Part shown: positions 276 to 64,000 of the stretch, piece by piece
Position numbering within the stretch: position 1 is the first letter of the stretch
Layout: the number at the start of each line of letters is the position of its first letter
From: Mytilus trossulus
Lineage: Eukaryota
Direction of reading: 5' to 3'
Assembly: GCF_036588685.1 (NCBI RefSeq)
Contig: NC_086375.1
Location: 71,734,001 to 71,798,000, forward strand
Length of the DNA stretch: 64,000 nt
The notes under the pieces: model-generated
What the model was told of the DNA's origin: nothing
The model's input: only the letters and a program-made list of their open reading frames with translations
The model's database searches: none
Program-made: the position numbers and the translations under genes

Positions 276-319
276 GCGTCACTGATGAGTCTTTTGTTGA
301 CGAAACGCGCGTCTGGCGT
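276..319 (+). ncRNA. Minimal type I hammerhead ribozyme in a retrozyme-like repeat (repeat about 135-345)
   Basis: GCGTCA-CTGATGA-GTC-ttttgtt-GAC-GAAA-CGCGCG-TC-TGGCGT: intact core, stems I and II, palindromic stem III. Predicted cleavage after C313. Confidence 0.8.
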
Positions 320-2187
320 ATATCATAATTTAATCCTGGTTTATTCACATTTCCCTGATAGATAGTATCCTCTTGTTGATTAGTTCTCATTCATGTTACT
401 ATGTGGATTCGATATATTCCATAGAACAAGATATAAAGGATACCAGTTAATTTATATAGTAAATTGACTTCAAATCGGGACAAAGGATTACGTGTAGAAA
501 TTGACAATGAGTCGACTGAGACGAGAACTTTACAACAAATGAGATAATTTTGGATAAGAATGTATAAATTGGAGATGAATAGTCAGATCAGAGACATAAA
601 TCTATCAGCTAATGTTTCAAGCGTAATCACTTAGGTATATATATAGTAACTCGTAAATGTCTTCTAACAGGAGCAACTTAGCGGGTGTCATCATTCAAGC
701 AGGAACTTAAGACCCTTCCAGTGCACCTAGGTTTGTTTTAGATTTTTTGAAGGTTCTGTTTACTCAAACTCTTGTGTTTTGTGTAGGCATTGGTGAATAA
801 TACTTTTTTTTATTCTTGTTGTGTTTTTTTTTTTTTCCTTTTTGTAAAAATGAATTCTTTCCTCTCTTTTATTATAGATGTTTCCCTATAATGGTTTCCT
901 ACGGGGATGTTAATTAAGTTATTCAGCATCGTAAACTTGTCTGGAAGTATTTTATTAAATAACATTAAAAATGCAAATTAATTTACCTTTTTAAAAATAT
1001 TTCATAATTAAAACTACATATATACATAATCCTTAAATGTTACTGAAGAATTTGCTTTTTAACATTACTGTGTACAATTGGTTATGACCATATTAGGGCT
1101 ATTCGAGTCGCATTTCTTAGATGCTGTCACAAATATATAAAACATTCAGTCTGACCCGCACTATCCACTTTAACAAACGATGTCCATCAATTACTTTATT
1201 TGTTGACTTTTCCCTTTAAAGGGGCTCAAGCTGTGAAATTCTTGTTCACCGATTTGCCTAAAGTTCTAGTATTTGATTTATAACATACTAAAATGTACAT
1301 TTGTATCCAAATTACAAAAAAGTCTAAAATAAACAATTAGCAATGCATGAACTCTATAATATGTATCCTCATTTAGTATGGTTTGTTTTTGGTTTAGACG
1401 ATTTCTAATTCAAACAGATAAATATAAACAGATAGCGACTACGTGCAATTTAATTTTTCTAGATCCTATCTGTTTGAATTTTTACTGTATGTTAAAAAGT
1501 GTGATTATCATCGTTTTTATCTGTATAAGACTAATATTTTGGTTTATGCATCGAATCAAATAACTAAAAAGTAAAATCACAAAAATACTGAACTCAGGAA
1601 AATCAAATCGGAAAGTGCCTAATTACATGGCAAAATCAAATTACAAAAAACACATCAGAAACGATGGACAAGAACTGTCATATCCCTAACTTGGTACAGG
1701 CATTTTCAAATGTGGCTTAAACCTGGTTTTATAGCGCTTAACTTCTAACTTTGTTGACAGTCTTATTAAATTCCGTTATGTTTACAATGATGCGTGAACT
1801 AAACAGACTTAATAAATAAAATAGTCAAAATATGGGTTTTACTTTAAATGTTTACATTCTGTTCTTTACTTTAAATAGCTGAATACATGTCGTGCGTAAT
1901 TCAACAAAGGTGCACAATTTGAGGTCACATGATTGAATACGTCTTCAAAGAGGTCAAATTATTCACTTGCAAGTGAAATATTCAACAGCGAGGTTTCTTA
2001 GTTTATTTTGACAAAATTAAACCAAATTGGCTGCTAAAATCGAATTATAATTATTATTTCATTCTACCACTTTCATTAATGATTGAACAAAAAGAATCAC
2101 ATAAAGGCATAGCTGATATATAAAAAGGTCCATTAGTTGTTTGCTATCCTACTCTTGTAATTAGGGTTTCGCTAAAAATAATATTAC

Positions 2188-2980: not shown

Positions 2981-5830
2981 CACGGGTGTCATTCGGTTTA
3001 TCGAGAGAAATGAGCGTGAAAGAATATCTAACGGCGGTCAAGTATTGTGCGACGATCGTGAAAGTTCTGGTAACGGATCGTGAAAGACATTTAATCGAGA
3101 AGACATATGAAAGGTCAATACATATTCTAATTAAATTAATTACACAGACAAATTTACGACAAAATAAAACTGTCTGTCAAAATGGTTCAACATTATGATC
3201 AGTATGTCAGAATATCCAGTTTTAAAAGTTCATAGTTATTACAAAACAACAAAAGGCAGATTACTTCTCGACATTTCAATGACATAAAAAATGTAAACAA
3301 ACATGATTTTTTCACAAATTCGACTAGAAAACCTACTTTAATACGAATAAGGGCATTCTATTTGAATTAATCAAATGATTTTTATAGTTATTTTGTATAA
3401 ACAAATATGAAACTTGGAAGATAAAGAACTATTTACACCAAAATGGATCTTTTGGATCGTGAAAGATCATGTACCGTTTTTTTGAAGATCGTGAAAAGGA
3501 TCGTGAAAGATCTGATGCTACGAAGACGTTCAAAGTTTTCTTCAATTATATCGTAGTTAATATTTGTTATTGGTATTGAGAAAAGCTATATAGGTCAACA
3601 ATCTCAATAGGTTTAAGCTTTTCAAAGTATAAATATTTTCAGAAAATGAAATGTAAAATAGTTGGATGATTGTAGGATGAAGCTTTTTATTGTCATGTGA
3701 AGTACTCACTTATCACGAGTTATAGGATATCCACATTTGGTATATTGGATCTTATAAACTACATGTCCGTCAGACAGGATTCACCTGAACCCGAATTTGC
3801 CTTATTTCATGGATGAAGATTCATTTTTGTGGTCAAGTCCGTATCGCGGATTCGTTAAGCTTTAGGATAAGTGTCTGTTGTTATGATTGTGAGGTGTATA
3901 TTTTGACATCTGCAAGGTTTCAACTGACATTGAACCCATTGTCATGCATCATTCGGCAATGCTCGTTTTATGTTGTCTAGCCTTTGGATATATACCTGTA
4001 TGATATAGCGCCATGGTATTTCGTGTATGGTGTACATGTCTGTTTGCATGTTTCATTAATGACCATAATGCCGTCAATTGTACTTGATATATTGAATGAT
4101 AGAAAGATGTCTATGTCTGGCTGTCGGTCAGGGTTCAAATACTTTTGACCTTATGTTTCGAATTAATTGTCCAGCATAACTTTTATATTTGTCAGTTTCT
4201 AAGGCACTGTAAGGATCGGAACACATTTATTTGGTCTACGGCCTACGGGATATTTGTAGAGATCGGTATGTCATGGTTCATCTGACCTTGCACTTTTTTT
4301 ATTAACCATTGACAATCATAATTTTAAAAAAAATGTGGTATGATTGCAAAAGAGACAATTATCCACAAGAGACCAAAGTGACACATACATTAACAACTAT
4401 AGGTCACCGTACGGCCTTCAACAATGAGAAAAGCCCATACCGCATAGTCAGCTATAACAGGCCCCCATAGTGACAATGTAAAACAATTAAAACGAGAAAA
4501 CTAGCGGCCTTATTTGTATAAAAAAAAATGAACGAATACCAAATATGTAACACATAAACAAACAACAACCACTGAATAACAGGCTCCTGGCTTTGGACAG
4601 GCACATACATTAATAATGTGGTGGGGTTAGACACGTTATTGGGATCCTAACCCTCCCCTTACCTGGGACAGTGGTATAACAGTACAATATAAGAACGAAC
4701 TATAAAAATCAATTGAAAAGGCTTAATTCATCAGATGGACAAAAATACATTAAGCGCATTAAGCGCATTTGACACTTCTAGTAAAACCCCTTATATTATA
4801 GACGTTCCATAACATTAACTATCATAAGTAAAGCAGACAAGACATTACAGCATTTTCGATTAGGTACTTTTAGTCTGCAGTATATAGTTAAATCAATCCA
4901 CATCTGCGTTGTACATACAGAACTTAAGAAAGTACTGTTGCACAAAATGTTGGTTACAATGTATCGTTCATTCTCAAATTACTCATGAAAGATGTTGTTT
5001 TGTTGTAATTTTTTTGTTTGATGGATATCATTTTGGTTTAAACGTTGCATATCCATATTATTGGCTATTAGTAAATAGTGTCAGTCTGCATGAATTGCAC
5101 TTGACCGATTCTCAAAGCTGAATCTTTCAAACTTATCTAGAGATGTTTTAGTTGTTGTTTTTTAACTTTCGAGATAAAGCGTTGAATAAAAAAAAAAGCT
5201 TTAATGTTCATCCTTATCAAAATAGTTAAGAGGCTTCAACCAGTTTCAGGTTTATCAAATGGTAAAAGAAATACTGATTTCTGATTACTAGTAATAAGTC
5301 TAGTCACGCATTATCTTTCACGATCAAAATAATGCGTTGCCTGATCTTTCACGATCAAGTTTGATGGATATTCAACAAATTCAAGGTTTTCATATACAAA
5401 TTAATGCTTTTAAGAGGAGAACATACCTTAATGTTACTGTACTAACAGATACACCAAAGATTACATTTCAAATATATCACGATGAACTGAAACATGACCA
5501 TGATGGTAACAAAGACCGTGTTATTGGTAATTAATTGCATATACATGCATTGCGCCTTTTGTGTTTTTTCATAAAGTGCTGCATATTTTCTCTTTCTTAT
5601 TTCACAGTTATGTTGGGGAAGTTAAACCATTTTGACAGACATATTTTTTTATTCGGATTTGTTCCGCGTTTTGAAAATTAAGCAATATTTTTAAAGATTC
5701 TGACCTAGAATTTCCATTAAATGTCTTTCACGATCCGTTACCAGAGATTTCACGATCGTCGCTCAATACTTGACCGCCTTTAGATATTCTTTCACGCTCA
5801 TTTCTCTCGATAAACCGAATGACACCCGTG
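2981..5830. mobile_element. Non-autonomous DNA transposon with 115-bp TIRs and CAC...GTG termini (Transib/Chapaev-like)
   Basis: 2981-3095 is the near-perfect reverse complement of 5716-5830. Flanks are GTTAA/GTTTA. GATCGTGAAAG recurs as a subterminal motif. A Penelope-terminus fragment is nested at about 4330-4750. Confidence 0.8.
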
Positions 5831-8052: not shown

Positions 8053-8736
8053 TATAATGACAGATAATCAAATAGAGAAAGGAAATGGGGAATGTGTCAA
8101 GCGACAACAACCTGACCATAGAAAAGACAACGCCGAAGGCCACCAATTGATCTTCAATGTAGCGAGAAACTCCCGCACTCGCGTCCCCAATAATGAGGTT
8201 TCTGACTAACGGCCAACAATATAGTTAATAAAAAAAGGTTCATAAGGACCCGAATGCCAAAATTCAGGAAATTGAGGCGTTCGGTCGAATAAATTATAAA
8301 GAAAGACATCAACAAAAAAAAAAAAATATGTACTGCATGAAGAGCTACGTTATTAAAAAATATTGCTTAAACTGAGATTTTATTTTATACTTGTATGAAG
8401 AAATAAAATTGCGTTTTATATATTGAGTGAGAAAAATTCTTTATGAGACCGCTTTGGTACTTTTTTTTCTGTAGCAGCATTAAACTATATAATCATTTAT
8501 CTTCTGCAGTCTTATCTAATATAAATTGAGCTTATTTTCACGATAGAGACTCAGAATATAAAAAAAGATGTGGTATGATTGTCAATGAGGCAACTCTCCA
8601 AAAGGGACCAAAATGACATCGAAATTTTTAACAACTATAGGCCACCGTACGGCCTTCAACAATGAGCAAACTAACGGCCTGATTTATGTACAAAAAATTA
8701 ACGAAAAACAAATATGTAACACATAAATAAATGACA

Positions 8737-8844
8737 ACCCCTGAATTACAGGCTCCTGACTTGGGACAGTCACAAACATAGAGAACTAGGCGGGGTTACA
8801 CATGTTAGCGAGATCCCAACCCTCCCCCTAACTTGGACAGTGGT
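8737..8844 (-). ncRNA. Twister ribozyme-like motif, type-P5 permutation (best-preserved core in the window)
   Basis: ACCACTG.CAAGTT-A-GGGG-GA-GGGT...TAA-CCCC-GC...ACT-G-TCCC-AA-GT-C-AGG-AGCCTG..CAGGGGT reproduces twister core blocks. Other copies: 4568-4675(-), 10920-11029(+), 56061-56169(+). Confidence 0.65.
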
Positions 8845-9699
8845 GTAACAGTAAAATATATTGTGACAGTGCTCAGTAAGGAACACAACTTAAAATTGAC
8901 ACTTATAGATTTGATTTCCAAAGTTATAATGGTGAAATATAATCTCTTTTAGGTGTAACCATGGCAACAATCTGCATTCATTGATACAAAATATTGGAAA
9001 AGGGGGGTGAACATGACACAAAAGTCTAATAAAAATTGGGCAAAAGGAACATTTTAATCAATTAGAGCGATACTTTTCTGAAACCATAGACATATATCTA
9101 TCAAGAGGTCATTTAAAATCATATCCATTTCTGCTCGTTTTTCTATGAAATTGAATTGAAAAAGTGAGCGTATAATCTATGTTGAAAAACACTACAACAC
9201 TTTCTAGACCTATGGGCGGTAGGCCTACGGATAGGAAAATACGGACTGTCCAACAAAATGGCCTATAAAATATGCTAAAAGCAATCTAAATGTTAAATAT
9301 AAACCCAATAAGAAGGCGATATTATTCTTCAACTATCGAAAAATCTATTTTATTGTACAAAAAATTTCATATTAAAAAAAATTCCCATGGCCATAATGCG
9401 AAACTAAACTACTATAACTGTGGTATTGCTACCCAGGAACGTTAAAACACCGACAATCAATCAATAGAATTAAAATATTGTTTTTGTGTTGCTTAACATT
9501 TAGTTTGGAGTTAAATTTGTTCGTTTTTCTCTTGGCTGGACTGTTAAAATATATTAGGGATCAGCTGAAGGACGCCTCCGGGTGCGGGAATTTCTCGCTA
9601 CATTGAAGAGCTGTTGGTGACCTTCTGCTGTTGTTTTTTTCTATGGTCGGGTTGTTGTCTCTTTGAAATATTCCCCATTTCCGGCTAAATTTTAGTAGA

Positions 9700-10067: not shown

Positions 10068-11288
10068 TACGACAAAATGGACGATTTTTCGTTCCCTATA
10101 GCTAATTTTCCATTTTTTAAATGGTGATGATCCTTTGGCACCATCTTACGGTGTTTATATTTCACAGCTCGTTCGCTATGCCCGTGTCTGTTGTGACTTT
10201 TTTTTTATTTTAACGAACGCAATCTATGTATTTCTGGGAAATTATTAAACCAGGAATATTGGTTACCGTGAATTACTTAAAACCTTTACTAAATTTTTCC
10301 ATAGATATAAAGATTTTGTTTTGAAGTTTGGTTGTAGCTGTAGAAAACTTATTTCAAATGGGATAACACATCCTCATTTTTACGGAAATGTTGTTAACCG
10401 TGCCCGGAAATTTAGAAATGATCCTTGTCAACTTATCTCTCCTTTAAATAAACTTATTCTAAAAGGTTACCAATTCAACACTGTAATAAGATCATTGAAT
10501 ATTGTGTTTATTGGTATAAATATTGATTTTGTTATCAGTAAATTAAAAGCAAACTAAATATTACTGGTATGTTATATTCATAATGGATCGACAGTCTGTC
10601 GATAACTGTAAATTGGCATTGACATTTGCACATGGTCATGTTTATCTCTGACTGTTTATGACGTCTGTACACTAAATCCATTGGATGTTGGGTGTGTACG
10701 GGTTGATAGTTTAGTCTTAGATGCATGATTTTTTTATTAGTTGTTAGTGTCTTTGAACTAGCTGTCAGATAACAGCGAGTACTCTCAGATCTGTTCCTAG
10801 TATCTTTTGTTGTCGGGATGTACAAGTACCCGGCCACGTCCACTTGTATTTTTGTCCATCTGAAGAGTTAAGCCTTATTCAACTATTTTTTATAGTTTGT
10901 TCTTATTTTGTACTGTTATAGCAATGTCGTAGGTTAGGAATAGGGTTGGGATCCCGCTAACATGTTTAACCCCGCCACATTATTTTATGTAAGTGACTTT
11001 CCCAAGTCGGGAGCCTGTAATTCAGTGGTTGTCGTTTGTTTTTGTGTCACATTTTTGTTTTCCGTTAATTTTTTATACAAATCAGGCCGTTAGTTTTTCG
11101 CGTTTGAATTGTTTTACATTGTCATATCGCCTTCTATAGCGGTGCCTTTTATAGCTGACAATGTGGTATGGGCTTTGGTCATTTTTGAAGGCCGTACGGT
11201 GACCTATAGTTGTAAATGTCTGTGTCATTTTTGTCTCTTTTGGATAGTTGTCTCGTTGGCAATCATACCGGGCACATCTTTTTTTTAT
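10068..11288 (+). mobile_element. 5'-truncated Penelope-like retroelement (Naiad-type): RT C-terminus, SECIS, twister-like motif, terminal repeat
   Basis: Degraded YDK.DDFSFPI.NFPFL.GD.PLAPSYGVYISQLVRYARVC reading. The ORF ends at 10557 with no C-terminal GIY-YIG domain. Colinear copy at 55130-56420. Confidence 0.8.
10650..10716 (+). promoter_or_regulatory. Form-2 SECIS element in the 3'UTR of the Penelope-like element
   Basis: GACTG-ttt-ATGA-c-GTCTGTACAC-t-AAA-TCCA-loop-TGGG-t-GTGTACGGGT-t-GA-t...TAGTC gives the quartet, a 10-bp helix II, unpaired AAA and an apical mini-stem. Homologues at 55786-55849 and, decayed, 57721-57785. Confidence 0.7.
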
Positions 11289-27945: not shown

Positions 27946-28798
27946 TGTTCCGAATCGTCGTTGTTGGAATAATTATATAACAGGGAAGAACAAGAGCTGC
28001 AAATGTTTGCACCTGTCCTAAGTCAGGATTCTGATGTACAGTAGTTGTCGTTTGTTTATGTAATATATACGTGTTGTGTCTCGTTTTGTTTACATATATT
28101 AGACCGCTGTTTTTCCCGTTTGAATGGTTTTACACTAGTAATTTTTGGGGCCCTTTATAGCTTGTTGTTTGGTGTGAGCCAAGGCTCCGTGTTGAAGGCC
28201 GTACTTTAACCTATAATGGTTTACTTTTTAAATTCTTATTTGGATGGAGAGTTGTCTCATTGGCACTCACACCACATCTTCCTATATCTATCATTTACAA
28301 TACAGTTGATATATGGTTATTAAACTTATATTAGTATATAGAGAAAAGATAACAAGACTTATATCTTGTTAAATCAGACAGAATTAATTTAGCTTTTTTT
28401 TCTAATCTGTTGTAAGCAATGCTTAAATAGGTTTTGGTTCATAAAAAATATGCTAAAAATAACCCAACAAACAAACCAAACAACAAACTATTAATAAAAC
28501 CTATTCGTCACGAACGTATTGAAATTCTACTTTCTATTAATTCTATTTTCATGCTTTTTAGATATATTTTTAAAGATATGTTAGGTTGTCTGTAATAAGG
28601 GTAATTGTAGTATTCCCCTATTCAATAGTCCTAAATCGATTAAACAAACGAATCCGGGACACAAACCATCAACAACACAAGGAAAAATCCGAACAAACAG
28701 AAACACTAAACCGCTACACAAACAAACGCTAACATGCATAGAAACGGTCTATTTGATAACGACTTCCATATTCCTTACTTCTATATGTGTTGGTTTAA

Positions 28799-32900: not shown

Positions 32901-35900
32901 TTTATAAAGCACAAATTACACCAATAAGAACGTCAAATAAGGAAACGGGGTATGTATGTAAATGAAACAACTATCCACCAGAATTCAAATGACGAAGATA
33001 AAAACTTATATTTTTTGTGCATGCCATCATATAAGTTCGCTGTCTTTAAAATGGTATAGTTATTAAACTTACACAAATGTGCCAAAGATTACATGGGAAT
33101 ATCCTCTTTGCACCATGCAGATGTTTCTCTACCTTTTCGACTCTCCATGGACCTTTTATTTCTGTATCTACCTCGCTCAAGGTCGGTCTAAACTTGCAAC
33201 TCTTTGGTATGATCTCCCACATCTGTTGTGAGACAACTACATTGCGCCTACTTTTTTCTCTATATTTACGTATTGGATCTTTTGACATGCATTGCATTAC
33301 ACGTTCTCTAAAATCTTGAAATAAAATACCTAGTTTTATATGCAACATCATTTTGAAAGTATGTGTGACCAGACAGATAATAATGCTAACATTTTGATTT
33401 AAAACTGAACCCTTTAATACTTTTGTTTAAAATATTATTTTCTTTCTTTTTTTTTCATATTTAGTACATTGTATTAGTAATTTTGTTGGTATACGTTCAT
33501 CGAGTGAAATAAGTAGACAACTATAAAGGTTTGGTAATTTTACCTGGTAGTACGTGCTTTAAATAATTCACAAAGAATCCCCACGCTAATCCATATGCAA
33601 CATTTCCGACTGGAATTTGGGATTTCATTGACACATCTTTCCCTACAGAAAATAAATAAATAATGTTATAAACGATTAAATAATATGTAATGATGAAAAT
33701 GATCAATTAACCAACTCAATTGCACTGAGATAATTGTTTTCAAGTCGTATATAGTATGTGACATTTGTATCCAAAACCATGCAGAAATGATTTAAAATCA
33801 TAGAAGGTGAATGCAGTGACCTATATATTGGAGGCAACATTATTCAATTAAAACATTGAGTGTATTCACCCTTAAATTGTCAGTCACTGCATTCCGAGAC
33901 TTCTGCTACAATTTACAAATACTAAAATGAAGTTTAGATCATGTGACTTGATTTATGTTTTTTTTAATGAAATGTTGGGATTTTTAATACACCTTCTTAG
34001 GAATGTAGACATTTTGGTTTCAATAACAAAATACCACTGAACTGTTCATAAAAGAAATTTCAAAATTCCACACTAAAAGCATAAAAATCAGTTTATTCGA
34101 GCGAAGGGTGTGTAAAAGAGTTTCCTAAACATTTTTTACTGAAAACCCACCAACGAGAGGTAAATAGTGAGGAAAATCAATTATGATGTTTGGAAACTTT
34201 CATTGACAAAAATTAATTACTTTCGATACAACGTAAACATTTATGAATATTTTGTTTTAATTTTTTTTAACATAACTCACAATACTGCCTATAAAAGAGG
34301 GACAAAAGATACCAAAGGGACAGTCAAACTCATAAATCTAAAACAAACTGACGACGCCATGGCTAAAAATGAAAAAGACAAACAGAAAAACAATAGTAAA
34401 CATGACACAACATAGAAAACTAAAGAATAAACAACACGAACCCCATATAACCTTGGTAGATTTTTGAAAATATTATATGCATGTATTTAAACACAGAAGC
34501 ATGTTAATTTGTGGATTTATGATGTTTATCTTTGTTCTGTAGTTTCATTCTTGGGAGGGTTTGTAGTCTGATATAAAGATCAAACATAAACAACATAAAC
34601 TTTTGAGAAAAAATAAGAAAATATCATATATGGTAGAAACAATTACTTTAGTCAGAAGTATTTTCTTTATCTTTAAACATTTACAAAAACGTTTTATAAA
34701 GATGTGTAACTTGTTAACCTATATAATTTAACACAAGTGACTATGTTGGTGATACTGAAAACAAGCTGTATAAACTGCACAGTAAATTTATTATAGGTGT
34801 GTGCCTTTACTTTTGTTCTTGGTTTTTTTTCCATACAAGTTTTGGTGTTTGCACAAAATAGAAACAAAAGAGCACAATAACAGATCAATGTATCTAAAGT
34901 AAATGAGGTTACATCATACCTTTAGATACTAGTATGTCATACTTGTTTAATACTTACTAAGTATTTACCATTGTTCCCTACATATTTGTACAGTTTAACA
35001 TGTGTATACTAATGGAAACTTACAGCTTAACGCCTATAAACCCATTTAAGGTGCCAAACTTTTACTTTTAAATGAAAATTTAGAAAACCAAATGGTAATT
35101 TATTACACTTTAAATTGTTAAATACAGACTTCAAATGCTACAACTGTTTTATCATATCCCTCTTTTGTAGGTAGCAGATATTACGTTCAAACCGTATTCA
35201 TTGATATATACCTCTCACAGCATCAACAATCATATCCAAGTAATCTTCGTCACGGTCTATACTTATATGCCTAGCCCATCTGATGAATGAGGGAATAGCT
35301 GTGGGTGTGATACCATTCAATACTGGAATTACGTTCAACGAGTTCGTCTCTATGCCAATGCTTAAAATCTCTGCCAAAAACATGCTGATCATATCTCTAT
35401 TTGATGACTCCGTGATGAACAAAATGACCCATCTTGCATCTCGTACACGTCTTTCGATTTCAGACAAAGAATCACCATCTCTCTCGTCTGATGATGCAGG
35501 TCGGGCCTGGGAATACCGGATTTTGTTTTTGTCGAGGTGGTCTTTCACTTTAAAAACTAATTTTGTGTCCTTGGCGTGATATAATAAACACACTTCGTCT
35601 CTGTAATGTTCTGTTTCTTCTGCTTTTTTCACTCCTTCCTGTTTAGAAAAAAAGTAAAGCTTGGATCAACAAAATTTTTGTGGTTTTCTTTTTTCCTCAT
35701 TGCACGGACTTTTTTTCAAAAGTACATACATGTATATTTAAAAAGGTGTTGTTTAATCTTCTATCACAATTATCTCCAATCACTGCCCTTAAGTTCATTG
35801 ACAAGTAATATAATAAGGATAACAATTATATGACAAAACTCCGGAAAAAATTCAGAACAGAATCAAATGGCAAAATTAAGAGTTCAAACACATCAAACGA

Positions 35901-38900
35901 ATGAAAAACAACTGTCATAGTGTAATTTCATGACTTAGTATCGGTATTTGTCTTATGTAACAAATAATGGAATAAACCTAATCTTATAACTAGCTAAACC
36001 TCGCACTAGTATGCAGTTCGCATAGAACTCCATCATATTGACATCAATGTAAAAGCAAAACAAACAGATATATAACGTAAAAATGTCAAATATTGGGAAA
36101 CAAGAGTCAGCATTGTATTTGAATCTTAATAACTATAAAAACAAACAACTATGTCAACAAAGAAAAACATAATGAATGGTATGCAGGCACTTTATCAGTA
36201 AAGCAAATAAGCAAGAATGAAAGACAATGATAAAAAAAACATGGCACGGTTCCTCATCTTTCTGTTTAAAATCATGCTGATCATATATATCTATATTTTG
36301 CACATGTTGTTTCTTTTTTGAAGGAAACTATTTAGGCATATTAATATATTTAACAAATTGAATACAAACTAGATGTTGCCCTCGTTATCGTGTCATCTTA
36401 TTAATCAAAGTATCGACAAACCCTTAGGAAACACATATCTGATAGAAACTAAATGTGCACACACGTTTCATGTACAACTAGTAAATGTAAATATGGAGTC
36501 CTTTTGGTTAAGTAGCTCCTGATTTGAGAAAGTGTGATGTACATATTTGTAGGAAGGTCGGACGAACGAAAAAATTATATAAATATCTGTATAACATACC
36601 GCTGCCTTTTCGAGTTGATTTTTAATAACGTCATGAACGCCCTGTCTTAGTTGGTATGAAATAGTAGCAGATTCTCCTTTTTCTTCGTCTAAAATGGAAA
36701 CAAAACTCTACATGCCGAGAAATTGCCTCCGTTGAATGTTTGCAAACATCCCATAGAGAAAACTGCTCGGATGAACAATGTTGATCATGTGGTACATGAC
36801 AGTGTATTAAGCAACACGTACATCAATTTGTTGAATGCATTCAAGTCTTTAATCTTCCAATAGGAGGTCCACTGGAGTTTTGAAAGAGCATTTCTTTTTA
36901 TCTCTTGACCTAGAACTCATAGACAAGCGTGTTCTTAACAAGTTTACTTTTTTACAAAATTATTATATTTCTTAATCTTTGAATGAATACAGACAATCCT
37001 GAGAACAGCATGCAAAGGTTACTACACTAGGGTGTTTTGACTTTGGAATATCGCATCAACATTATAGTATACACATATTTATAGTAGCAAAGAGTGGAAA
37101 CAAGCTTAAAATAATCGCCCTAGAAACCAAATAGTTCTCAAGGCAAACTTGCTATTGTCTGAAAAAACACTGACTATTTACTAGTTAATAATTTCAGAAT
37201 CTTTTTTCTAGAACAAACATTTCCCGTATTTTTATAAAACACAATCGTTATGTATGTCCAAGAAAATGTTTGCTTCCAGTAAACAGTTTTTAAAAGATTT
37301 TTGAAATATTGAAAGTATTCATCATTTATAAGAAAATAAATAAATACACAGTCAGGTATGATAATCATTTGAAATGTTTCATTGCAGTTGTAATCAACAT
37401 ACAGTTACTTACCATCGTACATCAACATTTTAGTCAATACACCATACTGTTTGTACTTCTCATGATTAAGGATTTCATTTAGGTAATGGTAAAACCTTTG
37501 AACCTCCACATCTCTCTGTGTTTTTGTGAAACTACATAAAATTTCTTCTTTGATTGTCCCAAGTGCACAAAATGCTCCTGGGTATTGGGCAACACAGAAG
37601 TATTCCTAAATAATTCAAAATGAATAATGTTTATTGTAACATAATACGGCATTTTTCCCTTTTTACCCGATAATCTGCTTAATAGTTTGGTTTCTGAAAA
37701 ACCATGGTTTATTATAAAGATTTATATATATGAATCCATTAAAGAGAATCATGACATACTTTGAAATTGCAACTTCATATAGATGGGCGGAGCTTGGACT
37801 ATGATTTATATTTTAATCTGATATTTTTTTTTATGTTAAACCCTGATTTAAACTCCGCCTTTCTTTTACCCCTCCGTGTGATTGATAGTCTAGTGAATGC
37901 ACGAGGACAAGGATTTCGTTTGATTTACAAATAGGATTTCTACTTTCTGGGAATTCCGTCTCCAAACAAACCATTAATTTTCGGAAAGGAAGTGGGTATT
38001 ATTTACACCTGACTGACCTGAGCCAGATTATTTTTGCCAGTGCATTTAATAAATGTAATAAATTGTGTTAGGGAAAATCTTATTTTTATAAGAATTTTTT
38101 TATGACATATCCTATCAGGAATATTTTGTTCTAAAACAATCCTAGGCCCCTACGGATTCGTCGTTTAAATGTTTCACTCGTAAATAGCATGGTATATATA
38201 TAATACATAAAATTCGGAATGAAAATGAGGAATGTGTGAAAGAGACAACAAACCGACCAAAGAGCATAAAACACCCGATGGCAACGAATGGGTCTTCAAT
38301 ACAGCAAATTTGAAAATCTAGCTATATACAACGTGAATGAAATTATATACAAATCACGTTTAACAAATTTACCGCCACAAAAAAAAATGACATTATTACT
38401 CTATCAACATTTTCAAAACCCAAAGTTTAAGTCTTTCGGAATTTTCTCTTGCATATAAATTGTTTCATTTATTTGTTTGTAAAATTTATCAAACCGAGTT
38501 TTTTTTAAAACATAACGACGATTTGATAAAGGAGAATGTTGATTTAATGATTGATATTTACAAAGCGTCCAGCGGTAATTTTTTCAAACATATAACTATA
38601 TAAGCAATCGAAAAATTTCCACAGATTTGGCCATGGTGACGTCCGGGCGATAATTTGAGAAGAAAGGTGATTATGCTCATAGTGATATGAACCTTGTCTT
38701 TTCCGTTGGTTCTACAGAATGTATTAACAGATTTAGACTAGTACACGGTAAAATAAAACTTATCAGGATAAAATATAAAAAAGAATGTGATGACCAAGGA
38801 GACAAATGTCCAAAAGAGACCAAAATGACACAAAAATTAACAACTATAGGTAATCGTAAGGCCTTCAACAATGAGCAAAGCCATAGTCGGCTATAAAAGG

Positions 38901-41987: not shown

Positions 41988-42569
41988 AGGAGTAGGTCCG
42001 GTAAGGACTCATTTTGGCCTCAAATTTCAGTTTCATCTGAAGAAAGATTTTGACCACTTTTTAAACACTAAAGTGTCTATTTATCTTGATTCAATTAGTT
42101 TTTGTGAAAGTTTTTAAACTAATTTAGTCATTAAAAACGATCCGATTCAAGCTCAAATATGAAAAATCTCTCAAATATGCCAAAAAACGTCACTTTTCGG
42201 GATGGTTTTTGTCAAAAATGAAAGTGGCCGCATCCGTGTTCATCCACAATCTTTATATATGTTATGTATTATCATAAAATACAACTTACATTTCAATATT
42301 AAAGATGAACACGAATGCGGCCACTTTCGTTTTACACGGAAACCGTCTAAAATTCAACTAAAATGATATAATTTTGAAGATTTCGGCAATTTCGCACGAC
42401 TTTATGGTGCTACAACCCGATATATGTGCATTGTATTGTTAAAAAACGACCATATTTATGTAGCAGAAGCATTTAACTGTCCAATAAATAACTAAAAGTT
42501 TATATTTTAACAATTTTGTAAAACTGTTATATTTTGGGGCCAAAAAGGGGTCTTACCGGACCTACTCCT
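41988..42569. mobile_element. MITE upstream of the TIR-STING start codon
   Basis: TIR AGGAGTAGGTCCGGTAAG / CTTACCGGACCTACTCCT with internal inverted AAAGTGGCCGCAT.CGTGTTCATC repeats. Confidence 0.75.
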
Positions 42570-45768: not shown

Positions 45769-46181
45769 TGTAAATAGTTATCAAAGGTACCAGGATTATA
45801 ATTTAGTACGCAAGACGCGCGTTTCGTCTCCATAAGACTCATCAGTGACGCTCATATCAAAATACTTATAAAGCCAAACAATTACAAAGTTGAAGAGCAT
45901 TAATTGAGTATCCAAAATTCCAAAACGTTGTGCCAAATTCGGCTTAGGTAATCTATGCCTGGGATAAGAAAATCCTTAGTTTTTAGAAAAAATCATAGTT
46001 TTGTAAACAGGAAATTTATAAAAATGATCACAATATTGATATTCATGTTACCAAACACCGAAGTGTTGACTACTGGGCTGGTGATACCCTCGGGGACGAA
46101 ATGTCCACCAGCAGTGGCATCGACCCAGTGGTGTTAATATTTATCAAAGGTACCAGGATTACAATTTAGTACGCCAGGCGC
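45769..46181 (-). mobile_element. Retrozyme-like unit (363-nt period) with hammerhead ribozyme at 45808-45851
   Basis: TCAAAGGTACCAGGATTA recurs at 45781 and 46144. The minus strand reads GCGTCA-CTGATGA-GTC-ttatgga-GAC-GAAA-CGCGCGTC-TTGCGT. Confidence 0.75.
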
Positions 46182-50500: not shown

Positions 50501-53500
50501 TTAAATAAATCTTTGCTGCAGTCCCAAACACTAACATAATTAAATACGGAACTTGAAATTTGACGGACACTTGAAAATCAATGCTTATATATTTTTTTGT
50601 AGATTTATTGCGGGTAAAAGCGTTAATTATTTTGTATACGAAGCGGTAACTCCTATAAAACGTAAAAGAAGAATCGTGCAGATCATTAAACCAGTCATTT
50701 ACAACTAACTTGTTAAATCGTCGATTCTTCAGTCTGTATGATATTTATAGATGAATTATATTTCTGAAATATGTGCTTTGTCCCTATTATTAATAGATCT
50801 TAATAGCGGTAACGTTTAGCAAGACTTTGAAACCAGAATATCAATTGCAGTAACATTGATTTTCGTTAAGGATAAAGGCTTACTAAGTTCGATCACAGAA
50901 TGTATAGGTTGGTGATATTTGCGAGCTTTTCCCGTAGAAATCAATTTACTTATTTCTAAAATAAACATTAAATAGTAACACAGATTAGAAATTGTCTTTC
51001 ATATTGCCTTCGTAATATTTTCCGTTTAAAACACTGGCTTCAATTGATGAAAAGATGAAATCGAATTAAGTGGACTAAAATCAGAGGAAAATGTTAAGAC
51101 CTGAGTAATGATAAAACTTTAAAGTTAACCAAAGTTAAATGTCTACGTAGAGAAAATGAATAAAGCCAAACAAAAAAACAAGAGTAGTGAAGTGAAAAAT
51201 ATTTGACCAAATCTGAAGAAACAAAACAACGGTCATCACAATTCATTGCATATAGTGTAATATCAAAACTTATTTTTCCCCAATGTGCCAACAGTTACAG
51301 TTTGTAAAACAGCACAAACAATGCAACTCTTCAAACAAACAAACGAATATCAATAACTAGAAGGAATCAGAAACCAACGTGGGTTGAGCCTCAGTCACAT
51401 TAGACTACGCTCACCGAGATCTAAAATCATGAAATTCAGATCATCGTCAGGTCGCGGTATGAGCGTTATACAAATGTAGAATTTCGTTGTTTTCACGATG
51501 CTACTACGTCCTCAAAACGCTGCTACAACGATCCCGCTACGATTGTATCACGTTCTCACCACACTTATTCTGCGACCTCACTACGATTATCACGATCGTA
51601 CTACGATCATTACGTTCTCACTACGACCATACTACGATTTATCCAATTGCAATATTATCTTACCACGCTTCTACTGCGTCTATGGCACGCTCTTACCACA
51701 GCATACTACGATCGTACCACGTTCATACAGCGATCTTACTTCGCTCTCAGCAGTAAAGTCAGATTCGTGTTCCATATAAATACTCCTTCGAATTTCTCAT
51801 TTATTCGTAGATCTCTAAGAAACAGCCATGACACCAAATTTAAATCTACCAGAACTCGTGGGCGCGGTAGGAGGGGGTATAGGTAGGGACAGAGGCAGAG
51901 GGGTCTCTGAAACTAACCCTGATCCAGTAGAAATGTCATATTGAACAATCCAAACTTAATCACAACATATTGCGGGTGCATCAAGATCATTGTAGTAAAA
52001 GGATCCAGTTTAAGGTGGGCATCTAATAGCAAATTGTTTGCCATATAATGCACTATATGCATGTGGAACGTTCCATGTCTTCTGAATTTCGTCTGCAATC
52101 GCCCTCCAATCATTTCAATCATGAACTCACTCCATCTCTATGACCTCGTCTTTGAGATTTTTTTTATCTGTGTTAATGATTGTAGAATCATTTCTATATG
52201 TACATGGGCTTGTGTTTCTTTGTTTCATTTTAAATTTGATGTTTCAAACAAAACCTGGAGAACTTTTATATATTTATGTGACAATTCCAGTGAGTATGAC
52301 TAGAACTCGAAAAAGTCGTAGTATTTACGTAGTCCTGTCGAAAGAAGAGCGTGATGAGAACGGCATGAGCATGCAAGAATTGTTTCATGGTCTTCAACAA
52401 CATGGTACAAAATGTATAAACGTGGTATAGAGGTTATATATAGAAGCATGGTTGGGTCGCGGTGAGAACGTCATGGTCGTATAGTGAGGTCGTTGTTACG
52501 TCGCTGTCAGATCGTAGCGCAGTCTCTCTGACTAGAATCCCGCTTTCGCTACGATCTCGCTACTACAGTATGGTATAGCGACCTTTGTGCTCTAACAACG
52601 ACTTTACTGCGCTCTCTCTATGCTCCTTCTACGACCTGATTTGTCCACGACCACACCACATGTTCAAAGTTTGTCACGCTCATCAAGATCATGATTACCT
52701 TTCACATAAAATATCGTGACGGATCAGCAATACGTTGTGATTCAGATTGGATTGGTTGAGTCGACACCTCTACTGGGTCGGGATTCGTATCAGAGGCCCT
52801 CTGATCCATCTTCTACACCTCCCACCACGCCTACCAGTTCTGGTAGATGTTGGTGGCATGACCGTGTTGTTTTCAAGAATTCTACGTATGAATGACAATT
52901 AGAAGGAATGGAACAGTATTTATATGGAACATGATGTTGACGTATTTGCTGAGCGTGTAGTAACATCGCGGTATGAACGTGGTAAGAGCGTGCTATTATT
53001 ACAGAAGAAGCGTCGGATGTTCGTGTTGCAATCGGAAAAATCGTGGTATGGTCGTAGTGAGGACGTGATGAGCGTAGTAAGATCGTAATAATCGTAGTGA
53101 ATTCACAGAACGTGGTATAATCGTAGCGGCTTCGTTGTAGCAGCGTATTGAGGACGTAGTAGCAACGTGAAAATATGCGGGTATGCTCAAGTATTAGGTG
53201 AGGAACAGATCGAATTGATAGAACTGCATAAAAGTAATGAAGGTGCAAGCACGCTTTAAATGAAGCAGCCATTGCTTTATCTAAATGTGCACTATATGTT
53301 TTTGGTAAATATATGTTAAAAATAATAATTGCTTTGATCTTGGATATTAACTCTATAGAAGTGAATTTCCTCAAGCATGGACAACAGTTTTCTGAGAAAC
53401 TCAAACAGTTAAAATAGGTTCTTGTATAAAACAACAAGAAACAAATACAACAAAGTAAAAAACGATAAATATTCGAGCACATATGAACAATGTTTGGTTG

Positions 53501-56500
53501 CCTTAATCGAATCCTAGAGAACGTTGTTCAAGGGTAAGACATAAACATTGATCTAGATGGGCGGCTCATATATTTCATATATGAAATTAAAAAACAAAAT
53601 AAAACTATTGAGCTTATTCTTAATGAAAACAGAACTTCAAACATGTTATTCTTATTTCAGATTACAGGGTAGACATTAACTATTCAAAATTAAAGACATG
53701 AATTTATTGGTTATTCAACTTTAATTCAAGATTTCATATCTCTTCTTATTTATTTGCATGTAATAACATGTGTGCTTTTGTATTTCAGTTGATCATGGAT
53801 CATGGTTTGATTTTACACGTAGCTGGTGGAACATGCGACACCATGATAATGTGTATATTGTATTCTATGAGGATATGAAAAGGGTAAGTTTAAAAAACGA
53901 ATGCTTGTGCATGGGTGATGAAATCCTTTTCGGCTCAATTTGAAATTAGAAAGAAGTGCAAAGACACTACAACAAGGTTTGACTCATTCGACTCGATCAA
54001 TCAAACCAGCGCATCGGCATCAAGAAAACTAAGAGACTTGCATCCGCTTTAATTTTTGTTTTTATAAACTAAGGCGGCGTATCTGAAAAAATAACATTAA
54101 AACGAAGGCAAAAATAAAGACAAGCAAACAGAATATATGTTGTGCAAGTCTGCTCAATGATTATTTAGAAACAGTCGATTTAAATAATTAAATGATCACA
54201 ATTTGTGAAACTTACATCATTGGAATATGTTTAAAACTAAATACTACTTATAATATGTAAAGCATTTCGCCATATTAAAATCAGATTTAAAACTTTCTAG
54301 AGAGTTATTATTTAGATTCTCAAAAATGTCGATAAACATCAATATCACAACAAGAGTTTAGTTTAAGGGTGACATTCAGTCGCTATTGGTATATCAGAGC
54401 TATAAAGAAATTTGTTGTAATTACATTAACTTCAAAAAAAATCTTGTTGAAAGTTGAAAGCTGAAATAGACTTTTCGACTTCCCAACCAACTTATGGTGG
54501 GAAAGTGATCCAACATTCAAGTTATATCATCTGATAAGATATAGGAAGACGTGGTGTGAGTGCCAATGAGACTAATCTCCATCCAAGTCACAATTTATAA
54601 ATTTAACTTAACCATTAAAGGTCAATGAACGGCCTTCAACACGGAGCCTTGGCTCACACCGAACAAAAAGCTATAAAGGGCCCCAACATTACTAGTGTAA
54701 AACCATTCAAACTTGAAAAACCAACGGTCTAAATGTTAGTATGGTGCCCATATCGCAACTAAAAATGAGTGTCAAGAAAATAGAAAATATTTATAAACTT
54801 GTATCTCAATCATAAATGTGGATGTGTGTTTCTTTTTCAGAACCTAAAAAAAGAAATAGTGAAAATTTGCGATTTTCTTGGAAAACAACTCGACGACAAA
54901 ACTTTAGAACGCATCAGTGATAATTGCTCCTTTGAGAGCATGCGTAATAATCCAATGACCAATCATTTAGATGTTTACTCGATTGATAGCAAAATATCGC
55001 CATTACTACGGAAAGGTATGTGTACGAATGAAATCTTAAATCTGTAATTTCATCATTACTACCTAACAGCACAACCAACTTTACGGCTCAAATTTACACA
55101 AAGGAACTTACTTTAAAATAAATCAAATTTAAACGGCAATAACTGTTATTTCCTAGATTTAGATAATACGGTCTTTAATGTGAAACTTAACTCTAAAATT
55201 TACGACAAAAGGGACGATTTTTCGTTCCCTATTGTTAATTTCCCATTTTTAGATGGTGATGTTCCTTTGGCACCATCTTACGGTGTTATAATTTCACAGC
55301 TCGTTCGCTATGCCCGTGTCTGCATGTTATGACGTTTTTGATTTTTTATTAACGAACGTAATCTATGCATCACTGGTAAATTATTAAATTGTGTCTCCGT
55401 AAATTACTTAAAACCTTTAACATTTTTTTCCATAGATATAAATATTTGATTTTGAAGTTTAGTTATACCTGTAGAAAACTTATTTCTAACTGGATAGCAC
55501 ACCCTCACTTTTAAGGAAATGCTGTTAACCAAGCCCGATAATTTAGAAAAGGTCCTTGTAAACTTGTCAATCCTTTAAATTAACTTATTCTAAAAGGTTA
55601 CCAATTCAACACTGTAATAAGATCATTTAATATTGTTTTTATTGGTATAAATATTGACTTTCTTATCAGTATATTTAAAGCAAACTTATAAAATGTTACT
55701 TGTATGTTACATACATGTTTACATTCATGGATCTACAATCTGTCGATACCTGTGTCTCGGCATTGCAGAAGATGATGTTTTCTTTGACTGTTTATGACGT
55801 CTTTGCATGAAATCAATTGGATGTTGGTGTACGGATTGATAATTTAGTCTTTGATGCAATGCATGGTTTGTTCTTAGTTGTCAGAGGCTTTGAACTAGCT
55901 ATCAGCTAACTGCGAGTACTCTCATATATGTATCTAGTGTCTTTTTGTTTTTGAGATGTAAAAGTACCCGTCAACGTCCACTTGACGTATTTTTATCCAT
56001 CTGATGAGTTAAGCCTTTTTCAACGGATTTTTATAGTTCGTTCTTATTTTGTACTGTTATACCACTGTGCCAGGTTAGGGGGAGGGTTGGGATCCCGCTA
56101 ACATGTTTAAACCCACCAAACTATGTATGTATGTGCCTTTCTCAAGTCAGGAGCCTGTAATTCAGTGGTTGTCGTTTGTTTATGTGTTACATATTTGTTT
56201 TTCATTCATTTATTGTACATAAATTAGGCCGTTAGTTTTCTTGTTTGAATTGTTATACATTGTCGATGAGGGGCCTTTTATAGCTGACTATACGATATCG
56301 CTTTGTTCATTGTTGAAGGCCGTACGGTGACCTATAGTTGTTAATTTCTGTGTCATTTAGTGGTCTCTTGTGGAGAGTTGTCTCATTGGCAATCATACCA
56401 CATTTTCTTTTTTTTTTATATTTGTTAAGGCTTGAAGAATTGCTTAACCACCTTTCGATTCAGTATCTCAGAGATACAGGTTTAAATGATGCTGTAAGTA

Positions 56501-57104: not shown

Positions 57105-60100
57105 AATGCATCGCACAATGCATGGTGTTCTTTCCAAATAATAGGATTATTAGAAGTTAAAATAAACCAAGAGTTTTAGAGCATCTTTTTTTAATTGTTT
57201 TTTTTTAACAAGCGTTGTCAGTTTTGGTAACTGCTTTATTTCGTCCGTCTGAAACAAATAGAGGCATCAAATTATACATCATCCTTAGTTTAAACGATTT
57301 ACTGCAACATTATTTGAACTATGCAAACATTTTGAAGGAGTTCGCCTCCGTTTAAGTAATATTTGAATGATTTATTCTCAAGTTCTCATGCTTGAAATCA
57401 AATGATCCAGACAATGCTATTGATAATGTAAAATATATTGATAATGTAAAATATCAACTGCTTGACAAAATATGAAGGCTTTTTGATCTCGTTCGCTACG
57501 CTCACTCGACAAAAAGCTTCATATTATGTCTCGCAGCTGATATTTTACGATATCAACATGCAGATAACCTGATAATCGGTACTTATTTTGTTATTTCTAC
57601 GAAGATATTTGACCTCAGTGTATAATAAATGAAATAAATGAAACTAGAAGTCGTTTTCAATATCATGTACGCTTTACATTTTTAAAAGGCAAACTATTAA
57701 AAAATAAAACGACTTTTTTAACTGTTAATGACGTCTTTACACAAAATCCATTTGATGTTTAAGTGAACTGGTTTCTATTTAAGTCTTAGATGACTTTTTT
57801 TGCATTAGTTGTTACATTGATTTGGCTAAGAACAATAACGGTCAGTAAATGCATGTACTCTCTGATCTGTACCTAACGTCTTTTTAAAGGGGATGTATAA
57901 GTACCCTGCCACGTCTACTCTGTGTTTGTTGGATGCATTCCTGCTTTATATTCATCTGATTTCTTATATTTTACTGCTATACCACTGTCCTATGTTATAG
58001 TAAGGCTGTCGACTTCAAATTAGATTAACCCAGTCACACTCTGTATGTGACTATCAGGAATCTTTTCATCTGACTATGCGGTATGGGTTTTACTTATTGT
58101 AGAAAGCCATACGATGACGTATAGTTATCAATTTCTACTTTATTTGGTCTAATGTGGAAAGTTGTCTCAAAAGCAATCATTCTACATTTGCTTATAACTA
58201 TATAATAAATATGTCTGATTAGTAGTGTTCGATATGAAATCAGAAGCTTTGGTATGATTGCCAATGAGACAGCTATCCACCAAGTTTCAAATAAAGTGGA
58301 TGTTACACTAGCAGATATAGACAACTGTACGGTCTTCAACAATAAAAAAACCAAAACCAATACTTGTTTGATTCCTCTTTATTCATTTTCGGGATTTTTT
58401 TATGAATAAATGAAAATTATACACTAAGTCTTACATTGTGCATTGTATTCAGTACCTTGATGTCACACTATTATGTTGTCGGAAAAGCACTTTTAGTAAA
58501 TATTAGTAAATATCTATTCGGGTTGACAGGCCCTTTTTTACATTATTATTCATAAAAATGTATTCAACAACCATTAGTATGTATCAATCATCTTCATGCT
58601 AAATCGACGTCAGATGTCGACTAGTAAGTTCTGTTGAAATATGCATGGTGCTGTACATCCAGATGCAAATATATCATGTACATGTGTATTTTAATAGAGA
58701 ACTGTTTTTATAATGTAATATGATTATACAGAAGCGGATCCATACATTTTTAAAAGGGGGGGGTGTCCAACTATATGTCCCCATTCAAATGCATTCATTG
58801 GCCAAAAAAGGGGGATTCCAACCCCCGGACCCCCCCCCCCCCCCCCCTTTGGGATCCGCCAATGTTATACATCAGTAGATAACACAAAAATTACGATTTT
58901 TTACATAATACATGTAGTAAATCTGGAAATATTCCACATGAAGACAACTCACGATTCAAACCTTTATTTATTCAGAGTCGTCAAAAGCCGACAAGTTTTA
59001 TGCTGTGTGGACATGATGAAGAAGAGGAAAGCATAGATTTCAAAGCTTATTGAGGTTGATTTTTTTTGTACTCACGTTCAAACTTAAAATAACTTCCCTT
59101 TCAGTATTTTAACAAGCGCGTGACGACTCAATTTTACACAGAAAACAATTTACGAATGTTGAGGCACATGTAAGTTTGTGAATGATTATAATGATACTGA
59201 CGCGTGGTAGATAGTATGATTAGATGATAGACATGTCGAAAGAGAGAGAAACTGATAAAGAGCTTCAATGACTCAGAAATACTGTGGCGGACTATAGTGG
59301 AATGTTGTAGGAGATGAGTCTGCAGTGCGACTGATAAAACAGAAAATAGTTTGGAATACAAATTTGAAAAAAAGGTAAACAGGTAAGCTATATATGTTTG
59401 CATTTTTAACGTTCATCTTCTGAGATTTAATTGATATTAGTACGACATTCGTTCTTTAGATACTGCATGATGTCAGCTGGTTTGTTTCATTATTTTTTCG
59501 AATGAGATCTAAATATATTTTATAAATTACTGTTAATTGGTTTACATTATTTATTCATCATTTTATATATATATATCGTATACTTAAGTTTTAAGTAGGT
59601 TTCCATTTGTTTATTTGTTTGCTTTGAATTTGATTGTATTTCTTTGTCATGTTTGCTGCATTCCATCGTCACTTCTAATCACTCATACTTTATCGTCAAG
59701 TTCTTAAGTGCAGTCTTGCAAATTAAATGATTAAGATATAAATAACATTTTGCTGCACACTTCTGCCTATAAAACAGTAAACAGCAGGGTTCTTGAAAAT
59801 TTCCGTATATCAAAATAAACCTGATTGTCTGTCCATCAATGTTATTTAAACCATCTGTCTGCATACACCTGACAGGAACCACGTGCCGAAGGGTTATCTA
59901 TATTCCTAACACAAGTAATTATCAGAATTAGAGTTGGCTTTGATATAGATGTTGTATAGATAATTATCCAGGTAAATTGTAAATAGTTCTTCTGTTATAA
60001 TTACTTATATGTAATTAAACTCTGCAATGGTATATGTCAAACTGAATGGTATACGTATCTTCCTATCATTTATATACAGCATCTTCTAGTTGTGGGAGAG

Positions 60101-63100: not shown

Positions 63101-63741
63101 TCCAACTAGTTAAAAAAAAATAGACTAATAAATGGAGAACATATTTAAGCGGTTAGTAAATTAGATGTTTATTTCTTCGTAGCAAATCCTAGCTGATTTA
63201 GGATTTACTTTCTTGTTTATCAAAAAGTAATTGACATTTAGCCCTTAAAACACAAACACATTGCATTGTTGCTAAGTATACATAATTGCGAAAGGACATA
63301 AACTTACTGACACATTAGTGTTCAAAAGGGAATATATATGATGGATTCAAGTCTATGTATACAAATGAAAAAAGTTTTTACTTTGTTATGTTGTTCCTGT
63401 GTACAGCCCTCTTTGATAACTATTATATAGTTTATAACGTATGAGAACTATACCTCAGTCAAAATACTATGTTATGCTCTTTTTCAATAATGAAAAATAC
63501 AAATCGAAATAATTTAAGAAAAATAACATTTTTCTGAACTTTTGCATGATACGTGTCTTCTTTTTTTTGTTGATTAGCCGGTGTATTCTATTTATTTTTT
63601 TATGTTGGATTATTGTCTTATTGACTTACATCTCACATTCCCTTCAGTATTCTTATATCAGCACGTGCATTTTCCGTTTATAAAATTTTCAAACATTTAT
63701 GCTGCTTTATGTTGTGCTGACATTTTAATGTTATATTTCAC

Positions 63742-63841
63742 ATGGCCATAAAATAGGGAGGTTTGTCATGCCACAAAATCAGGTTCAACCCACTATTTTT
63801 TTCTTTAAACATGTTCTGTACCAAGTCAGGAATATGGCCAT
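63742..63841 (+). ncRNA. Twister-like motif in a second repeat family
   Basis: ATGGCCATA/TATGGCCAT closing stem, GA-GGT with T-ACC pseudoknot partner, AA-GT-C-AGG. Relatives at 1674-1761(-) and about 35911-36020(-). Confidence 0.5.
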
Positions 63842-64000
63842 TATTATACTATATTTTGTTTCTGTGTGTGTTACATTTTAACGTTGTATTTCCGTTGTGT
63901 CGTTTGTTTTCTCTTATTTTTGAGTGTGAATTCACATTACTATAAGACGTGTCACGGTACTTATCTATCCCAAATTCATGTTTTTCGTTTTTATGTTATA

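Follow-up and report, generated by a model that had tools for sequence, protein, structure and literature searches.

The window analysed here is the whole 64-kb stretch of DNA (C3:71734001-71798000), taken from a genome of 1.30 Gb in 541 contigs. It has a high AT content and many dispersed repeats, which appear to resemble the mussel repeats described in PMC7229834. Among them lie copies of a twister-like RNA, assigned below to families A to E, at the following positions.

63742..63841, + strand: family B twister-like RNA in type-P5 order, a decayed copy (from comparison with the family consensus)
63742..63750 pairing with 63833..63841, + strand: P5 closing stem, ATGGCCATA / TATGGCCAT (read directly)
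63754..63762, + strand: P2 3' strand (63754-57), conserved G-A (63758-59, the G being the predicted general base) and T1 3' strand GGT (63760-62), mapped onto the Rfam twister-P1 consensus
63764..63773, + strand: palindrome X, broken here by one change; the family B form is TGGCATGCCA
63777..63785, + strand: palindrome Y, an odd palindrome, with one change here
63786..63793, + strand: predicted cut C63786/A63787 (the A being the predicted general acid), A63788, P2 5' strand CCC and T2 5' strand AC, as suggested by the Rfam alignment and PMC5408937
63794..63813, + strand: P3 hairpin, with two changes here
63815..63831, + strand: P4-L4-P4' core, with T1 5' strand ACC (63820-22), AA, T2 3' strand GT (63825-26) and then the conserved A
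63709..64000, + strand: family B element copy, 5'-truncated, running about 190 bases past the window end
1674..1761, - strand: family C twister-like RNA, decayed, within an element copy at 1571-1837
56061..56169, + strand: family A twister-like RNA within the 3' UTR of a Naiad element copy (RT tail at 55138-55727, element ending near 56413)
10920..11029, + strand: family A copy that has lost G-A, in a Naiad copy (RT tail 10068-10599; element end about 11288)
4568..4675, - strand: family A copy, decayed
8664..8860, - strand: family A copy, decayed, with the motif near 8737-8850
27996..28290, + strand: family D copy, 5'-truncated 6 nt past the predicted cut, keeping P3 and P4-L4 with CCT
35861..36007, - strand: old family C-like copy, 74% identity

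A loose search of the window for the P4-loop core returned 63815 (+), 1685 (-), 4586 (-), 8755 (-), and 10996, 56136 and 28012 (+). The copy at 63742 differs from the family B consensus at 7 positions within the motif, one of them breaking palindrome X, and retains G-A, GGT:ACC, both A's past the predicted cut and T2. The initial annotation had described two diverged repeats sharing one twister fold, and their closing stems lie where it placed them (ATGGCCATA/TATGGCCAT, and ACTGTCA at 1674-1680 with TGACAGT at 1755-1761); the ACCACTG/CAGTGGT family with which it compared them is also present in the window (56061-56169, 4568-4675 and decayed copies). It had further read a change of the pseudoknot pair from GGG:CCC to GGT:ACC and the persistence of GA and of G-T.CC-AA-GT-C-AGG. 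Both statements hold for the 63742 copy and do not hold in full for the one at 1674-1761, which was correctly located, with no strand given, and whose motif reads on the minus strand: there AGT stands against ACC in T1, GGT:ACC being found only in the family consensus, and TAGG replaces CAGG. In the same copy the first P2 pair is mismatched, P3 has lost 10 nt and P4 carries one change. Neither individual copy folds better than its shuffles (z of -0.95 for 63742 and -0.64 for 1674), and Rfam scans of the window returned no twister even at an E-value of 10. The case therefore rests on the families and not on the window copies.

Copies were gathered by genome searches with the window copies, together with 1.2 Mb taken at round coordinates (2 of these 120 stretches adjoin the window). 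Of the 264 distinct copies, 51 stood alone and two formed a pair; the others fell into five families, with 69, 45, 38, 33 and 26 members. Family A has the ACCACTG stem, family B includes the 63742 copy, family C the 1674 copy, and family D has AGG:CCT as T1; the earlier inventory had recognised three families and missed D and E. All five share one order of elements: P5, P2', GA, T1', a junction holding the palindromes X and Y, the cut Y|AA, P2, T2, P3, P4, U-NNN-AA-GU, P4', A and P5'. Pairwise identity of the motif, compared for eight family motifs, is 51-90%. An exact 17-nt core has 39,965 genomic copies and the whole descriptor 20,353 matches, with none for the reversed-pattern control of either; such genome-wide counts demonstrate a repeat, not a function. 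In 464 kb of unselected DNA, a family-agnostic descriptor gave 7 full matches, against 0, 0, 0, 1 and 0 in five shuffles. At one locus (G000:C1:1156743-1156915), five copies of the core with a 39-nt period reflect local tandem amplification of the P4-L4 hairpin.

The template for mapping was the Rfam twister-P1 alignment of canonical twisters from the same genome. Every core element maps onto the twister-P1 consensus in circularly permuted (type-P5) order, and the match is strand-specific. Base pairs were counted on parsed elements because a MAFFT alignment of 12 copies was out of register, by one column between families A/E/D and B/C; from it RNAalifold recovered P4 alone, with zero covariation. 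Ten masters could be parsed, eight from this genome and two from other host-derived contigs. The pair count covers nine masters, leaving out D3 and C2 (unparsed) and D2 (equal to D1 at these pairs), and takes the first two pairs of P2 only. In these masters, 133 of 135 cells are paired and two-sided changes affect 7 of 15 pairs, the structure having been read from the same sequences as those counted. Controls in which the partner strand was slid by one to three columns gave 33-55 paired cells of 135 and 0-1 two-sided pairs of 15. Since the families are related, the two-sided changes represent few independent events (two for T1).

T1 takes the forms GGG:CCC, GGT:ACC or AGG:CCT, so that two different positions covary, with 29 of 30 cells paired across the 10 parsed masters. 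Across masters, the first pair of P2 alternates between C-G and U-A, and the first four pairs of P3 all switch. T2 is complementary in the 10 parsed masters and changes on one side (G-U/A-U), plus C-G. P4, of 4 bp, is invariant, without two-sided change, and the P4/L4 hairpin as a whole is conserved in sequence and nearly invariant. P2 has 4 bp in A, D and E, and 3 bp plus a bulge in B and C. The P5 stems differ wholesale between families, with about 10-15 expected pairs in 11 of 12 masters. None of the 10 parsed masters departs from the conserved G, A+1, A+2 or trans A.A partners, the parser having required them; the G, A+1 and A+2 at catalytic positions, together with the L4 motif U-NNN-AA-GY, also occur in all five family consensuses, which were built without that filter. 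Mismatches are a G.A in T1 of subfamily C3 and a C.C in P2 of B2 (3 copies). Of 12 masters, A and D1-D3 form P2 under nested folding (probability 0.66-0.97), and the other 8 do not. As described in PMC11662667, twisters partly tolerate imperfect P1 and P2 and wobble pseudoknots, and do not tolerate loss of the catalytic A.

T1 and T2 are present as pairing potential, from which we infer folding into the double pseudoknot. These comparisons support a conserved twister-like fold across diverged element families: consensuses derived from the genome do carry the paired changes in T1, P2 and P3, as had been anticipated. The accompanying view that structure, not sequence, was conserved applies to T1, P2 and P3, with their two-sided changes, and to the wholesale replacement of P5; it does not extend to the catalytic positions and P4-L4, nearly invariant in sequence. 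A reading without any RNA function, in which the pairings are by-products of shared descent and of inverted-repeat maintenance at the DNA level in a repeat tail, would account for single copies that fold like shuffles, for the RNAalifold result of P4 only without covariation on an alignment one column out of register, and for positional p-values of the palindromes of just 0.006-0.08 per family in this genome. It sits badly with the long-range two-sided changes in T1 and P2, the strand-specific match to the twister consensus and the failure of the slid controls, and we regard it as very improbable.

The closest known relative of this arrangement is the type-P5 twister (Rfam RF02684, clan CL00120; PMC5408937), which likewise has its termini in P5, contains the stems P2, P3 and P4 as well as two pseudoknots, and has G-A preceding T1, AA following the cut and the L4 motif U-NNN-AA-GY. 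It differs from the RNA studied here, which lacks a canonical P1, has two palindromes instead and shows a bulged 3-bp P2 in families B and C. Rfam models did not reach the gathering threshold on this RNA; the best Twister-P5 match genome-wide scored 24.9 bits, and control genomes match too. The same genome contains canonical type-P1 twisters, with 62 matches, 2 of them over the Rfam cut-off (L318-L327, e.g. C2:21326050-21326110). Among metagenome and viral matches to the exact 17-nt core, 24 of 145 are P1-order twisters. Rfam applied to 15 such P1-order core loci matched the twister model at 14, with 27.9-58.3 bits, all below the cut-off, and these 14 include T2 AC:GU and T1 GGC:GCC and GGA:UCC; none of five P5-order metagenome loci was matched by the Rfam twister models. 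P5-order relatives with new stems and palindromes are present in other host-derived contigs (L362, L368, L402 and L408). In metagenome and viral contigs, numerous P1-order twisters below the Rfam gathering score have the exact CCTG..CAGG core (L339, L341, L343, L351, L385, L410, L449, L453, L463 and others), and an abundant L343-like P1-order family has a long branched P3. The RNA is not filed as a type-P5 twister, because P1 and the Rfam threshold are lacking and cleavage is only predicted. Most likely it would nevertheless work like one.

The earlier statement that these repeats carry the same twister fold is right as to core order and fails at P1. Here the UU after T1' faces the UU before the cut, so the canonical P1 cannot form, and palindromes X and Y lie between. 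Palindrome X takes the forms GGGATCCC, TGAGATCTCA, TGGATCCA, TGGCATGCCA, TAGCGCTA and TAGCTAGCTA, and palindrome Y the forms AACATGTT, AAACGTTT and AACCAGGTT. Family D includes three subfamilies that differ at the two central bases of X, which in a hand count of the first 100 of 3,452 copies were AT in 42, GC in 47, TA in 9, GT in 1 and AC in 1, so that 98 of 100 copies are self-complementary there. In B/C2-type copies, the central four bases of X were CATG in 45, CTAG in 41 and 14 others, each at most twice (hand count, first 100 of 4,617), and the X centre of family C is CG. Each of the four self-complementary dinucleotides thus occurs as a centre, and among the matches listed no subfamily has any of the remaining twelve. 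The central bases of X cannot pair within a hairpin, so the pattern is most simply read as selection for intermolecular pairing, and the switching of the X centre points, at the level of sequence, to pairing between copies. Outside this genome, one palindrome in each of the two masters is weaker, with positional p-values of 0.21 and 0.45.

Whether such pairing bears on cleavage can be weighed against what is known of other ribozymes. Penelope hammerheads act as dimers through palindromes (PMC4209133), and their palindromic helix III (PMC4209133, PMC6765202) parallels X. A dimer-gated, domain-swapped twister would have the palindromes of two terminal repeats rebuild P1, so that only partial-tandem transcripts are cut to unit length; we put this forward tentatively and consider it rather unlikely. 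Twisters can cleave without P1 (PMC5408937); a dimer need not gate the cut, and the pairing may instead serve RNA dimerisation. A variant of our preferred reading, and not exclusive of it, is a monomeric twister without P1, in which X and Y form small local hairpins or are unrelated to cleavage. That twisters can do without P1 and accept insertions close to the cut (PMC5408937, PMC11662667) suits this variant, as does the odd-centred Y of families B and C, able to form a hairpin with a 3-nt loop. Dimer energies are also unremarkable, no single family being significant against shuffles (12-99 of 200 shuffles as good at 37 C). It has to contend with a junction that is nearly unstructured as a monomer (0 to -2.0 kcal/mol) and reaches -9 to -20 kcal/mol as an X:X duplex, and with an X centre that varies only among self-complementary dinucleotides across master subfamilies. 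On balance, its chances fall somewhat short of even. In every family, the end of T1' with the UU also matches, as a complement, the AAC(C) half of palindrome Y; this alternative pairing could keep the pseudoknot strand in an off state.

The RNA is carried by retrotransposons. In long family A copies, the RT ends about 390 nt before the core, the DKA, CxC and KGPKY motifs are present, and no domain follows the RT; in families A and E the ORF ends after the RT thumb. From the end of RT homology to the core the distance is about 725 nt in D (2 copies), 800 nt in C (3 copies) and 1130-1230 nt in B (3 copies), and the twister-like RNA sits 0.4-1.2 kb downstream of a C-terminal RT. Family D carries a Naiad RT. 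DKA is found in A, D and E and CxC in A, B and E, the DKA region being frameshifted in the family B copy read. By the RT, DKA and CxC diagnostics given in PMC8557442, the host is a Naiad-type Penelope-like element. In L480, a nearly complete element of family E, direct repeats of 407 nt and 99% identity lie 4,007 nt apart, each with the motif, and enclose an ORF with a GIY-YIG-like start, recognised by eye, and a C-terminal RT. Partial tandem structure with the pLTR is shown in this one family E copy. The GIY-YIG-like motif was seen in L480 only, the N-terminal region lying beyond the reach of the 14 long family A copies, and Pfam and PDB sequence searches returned no hit supporting a GIY-YIG endonuclease. 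The Naiads of Craig et al. 2021 (PMC8557442) share the C-terminal RT, DKA, CxC, partial tandems, a unit of about 4 kb, UGA-cysteine and SECIS-like elements. Here a SECIS-like element lies between the ORF end and the twister-like RNA at window positions 10650-10716 (+), scoring 33.4 bits against a gathering threshold of 35, and others, likewise directly behind the Naiad ORF, at L480 845-909 (-) and L474 4486-4550 (-) score about 32-33 bits against the same threshold; in-frame TGA codons occur at cysteine positions of the Naiad ORFs. In combining SECIS-like elements with TGA, these resemble the selenoprotein-type Naiads that Craig et al. describe for clams and spiders (PMC8557442).

Family B is less regular. 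In the three long copies read, RT homology stops short of the end of the thumb and the tail is composite with a retrozyme-like segment, for which reasons the family may be non-autonomous. This segment, 270 nt long, lies about 240-244 nt upstream of the family B core (L472, L473 and L474, all on the minus strand). It includes a hammerhead-derived piece with stem I intact and an altered catalytic core, the alteration being fixed in some 20 copies; B2-type pieces look less changed. Replacement of a hammerhead by a twister within family B was set aside: the segment has 73-77% similarity to tandem retrozyme repeats and none of 46 intact hammerheads has RT homology in the 1.5 kb upstream, so that capture of part of a retrozyme explains it equally well.

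Taken together, the 63742 stretch is probably a decayed twister-like RNA in a Naiad terminal repeat, whose active parents likely cut themselves at Y|AA in a role like that envisaged for the hammerheads of other Penelope-like elements. A partial-tandem transcript would carry the RNA twice, each copy would fold into the double pseudoknot, and cleavage would use the conserved G as base and A+1 as acid (roles from PMC5408937), so that cuts at both sites could free a unit-length RNA. X and Y may take the place of P1, each pairing with its counterpart in the second copy. The 5' ends of element copies show no pile-up at the predicted cut, with 4 of 324 ends within -4..+7 and 1 exactly there. As the ends do not mark it, the cut is not what ordinarily sets the end of the template. 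In vitro, a Poseidon element likewise inserted without hammerhead cleavage (PMC11167929); together with the unmarked copy ends, this makes what the cut does biologically less secure than the fold. Four contig sets presumed to derive from RNA cover the family B tail and reveal no position at which many molecules start or stop, although contigs cannot show the ends of molecules.

The unmarked copy ends also suit a twister-derived scaffold that does not cut and acts as a binding or packaging signal for a Naiad protein, with palindromes that pair two RNAs to allow template switching. The mismatches that have become fixed in C3 and B2 point the same way, as does the family B hammerhead remnant, whose changed core shows that dead ribozyme folds can persist in tails. 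Against such a scaffold, the G, A+1, A+2 and trans A.A are invariant in 10 masters (as the parser required) despite 51-90% identity, and the core is identical to that of P1-order twisters. We therefore judge the scaffold improbable and retain a self-cleaving parent RNA as the preferred reading.

Two retrotransposon-borne systems offer comparison. The minimal hammerheads in the pLTRs of Penelope-like elements (Cervera and de la Pena 2014, PMC4209133) occupy the same terminal-repeat site, occur at both ends in partial tandems, have a palindrome at the helix beside the cut and show high family variety per genome. They differ in belonging to another ribozyme class and in having one palindrome against two here, where the host is a Naiad. 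The T-variant twisters of Perere-3 in Schistosoma mansoni (Liu et al. 2021, PMC8501958) are likewise retrotransposon-borne with an altered P1; they lie at the 5' end of a non-LTR element and their cut marks the insertion end, whereas the Naiad RNA has a 3' UTR/pLTR location, is permuted, and its copy ends do not coincide with the cut.

A search of the published literature, the supplementary list of tested twisters in PMC11662667 lying outside its scope, turned up no twister in Penelope-like elements, Naiads included. PMC8557442 describes Naiads as without canonical hammerheads, and neither its main text nor its supplementary metadata file mentions twisters. Eckert et al. did not find new permutations of the twister (PMC10085705); the Naiad RNA follows the circular P5 order and has an altered P1. 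As far as sequence comparison goes, at least five Naiad families share a twister-like tail RNA maintained by paired changes; it likely cuts the RNA of the element and could pair with another copy through its two palindromes. Naiads dominate bivalve genomes, and their lack of hammerheads has been taken to mean that the ribozyme is dispensable or parasitic (PMC8557442). If our reading is true, that argument is reversed: self-cleavage would be general to Penelope-like elements and the ribozyme class interchangeable. It would also add tens of thousands of genomic twister-like copies missed by Rfam, and a natural permuted twister with P1 replaced by intermolecular palindromes. If the twister were in addition dimer-gated, an unrelated catalytic fold would have arrived by convergence at the dimeric mode of action of Penelope hammerheads.

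The window holds further elements of related kinds. Minimal type I hammerheads lie at 276-319 (+), 12971-13014 (+) and 45808-45851 (-), with Rfam scores of 20-32 bits against a cut-off of 34, and two more were recognised by motif only at 25652-25676 (-) and 24982-25006 (-); all are solo fragments of a retrozyme-like repeat. A fragment of another Penelope-like RT, 46% identical to that of family A, occupies 7642-8043 (-). At about 54840-55020 (+), an open stretch ends in an RKG motif and resembles a sulfotransferase exon; the family A Naiad copy at 55138-56413, past this stretch, probably lies in an intron. Finally, long inverted repeats at 42199-42351, 57451-57543 and 51490-53173, with miRNA-family matches far below the cut-off, are probably MITE-like.
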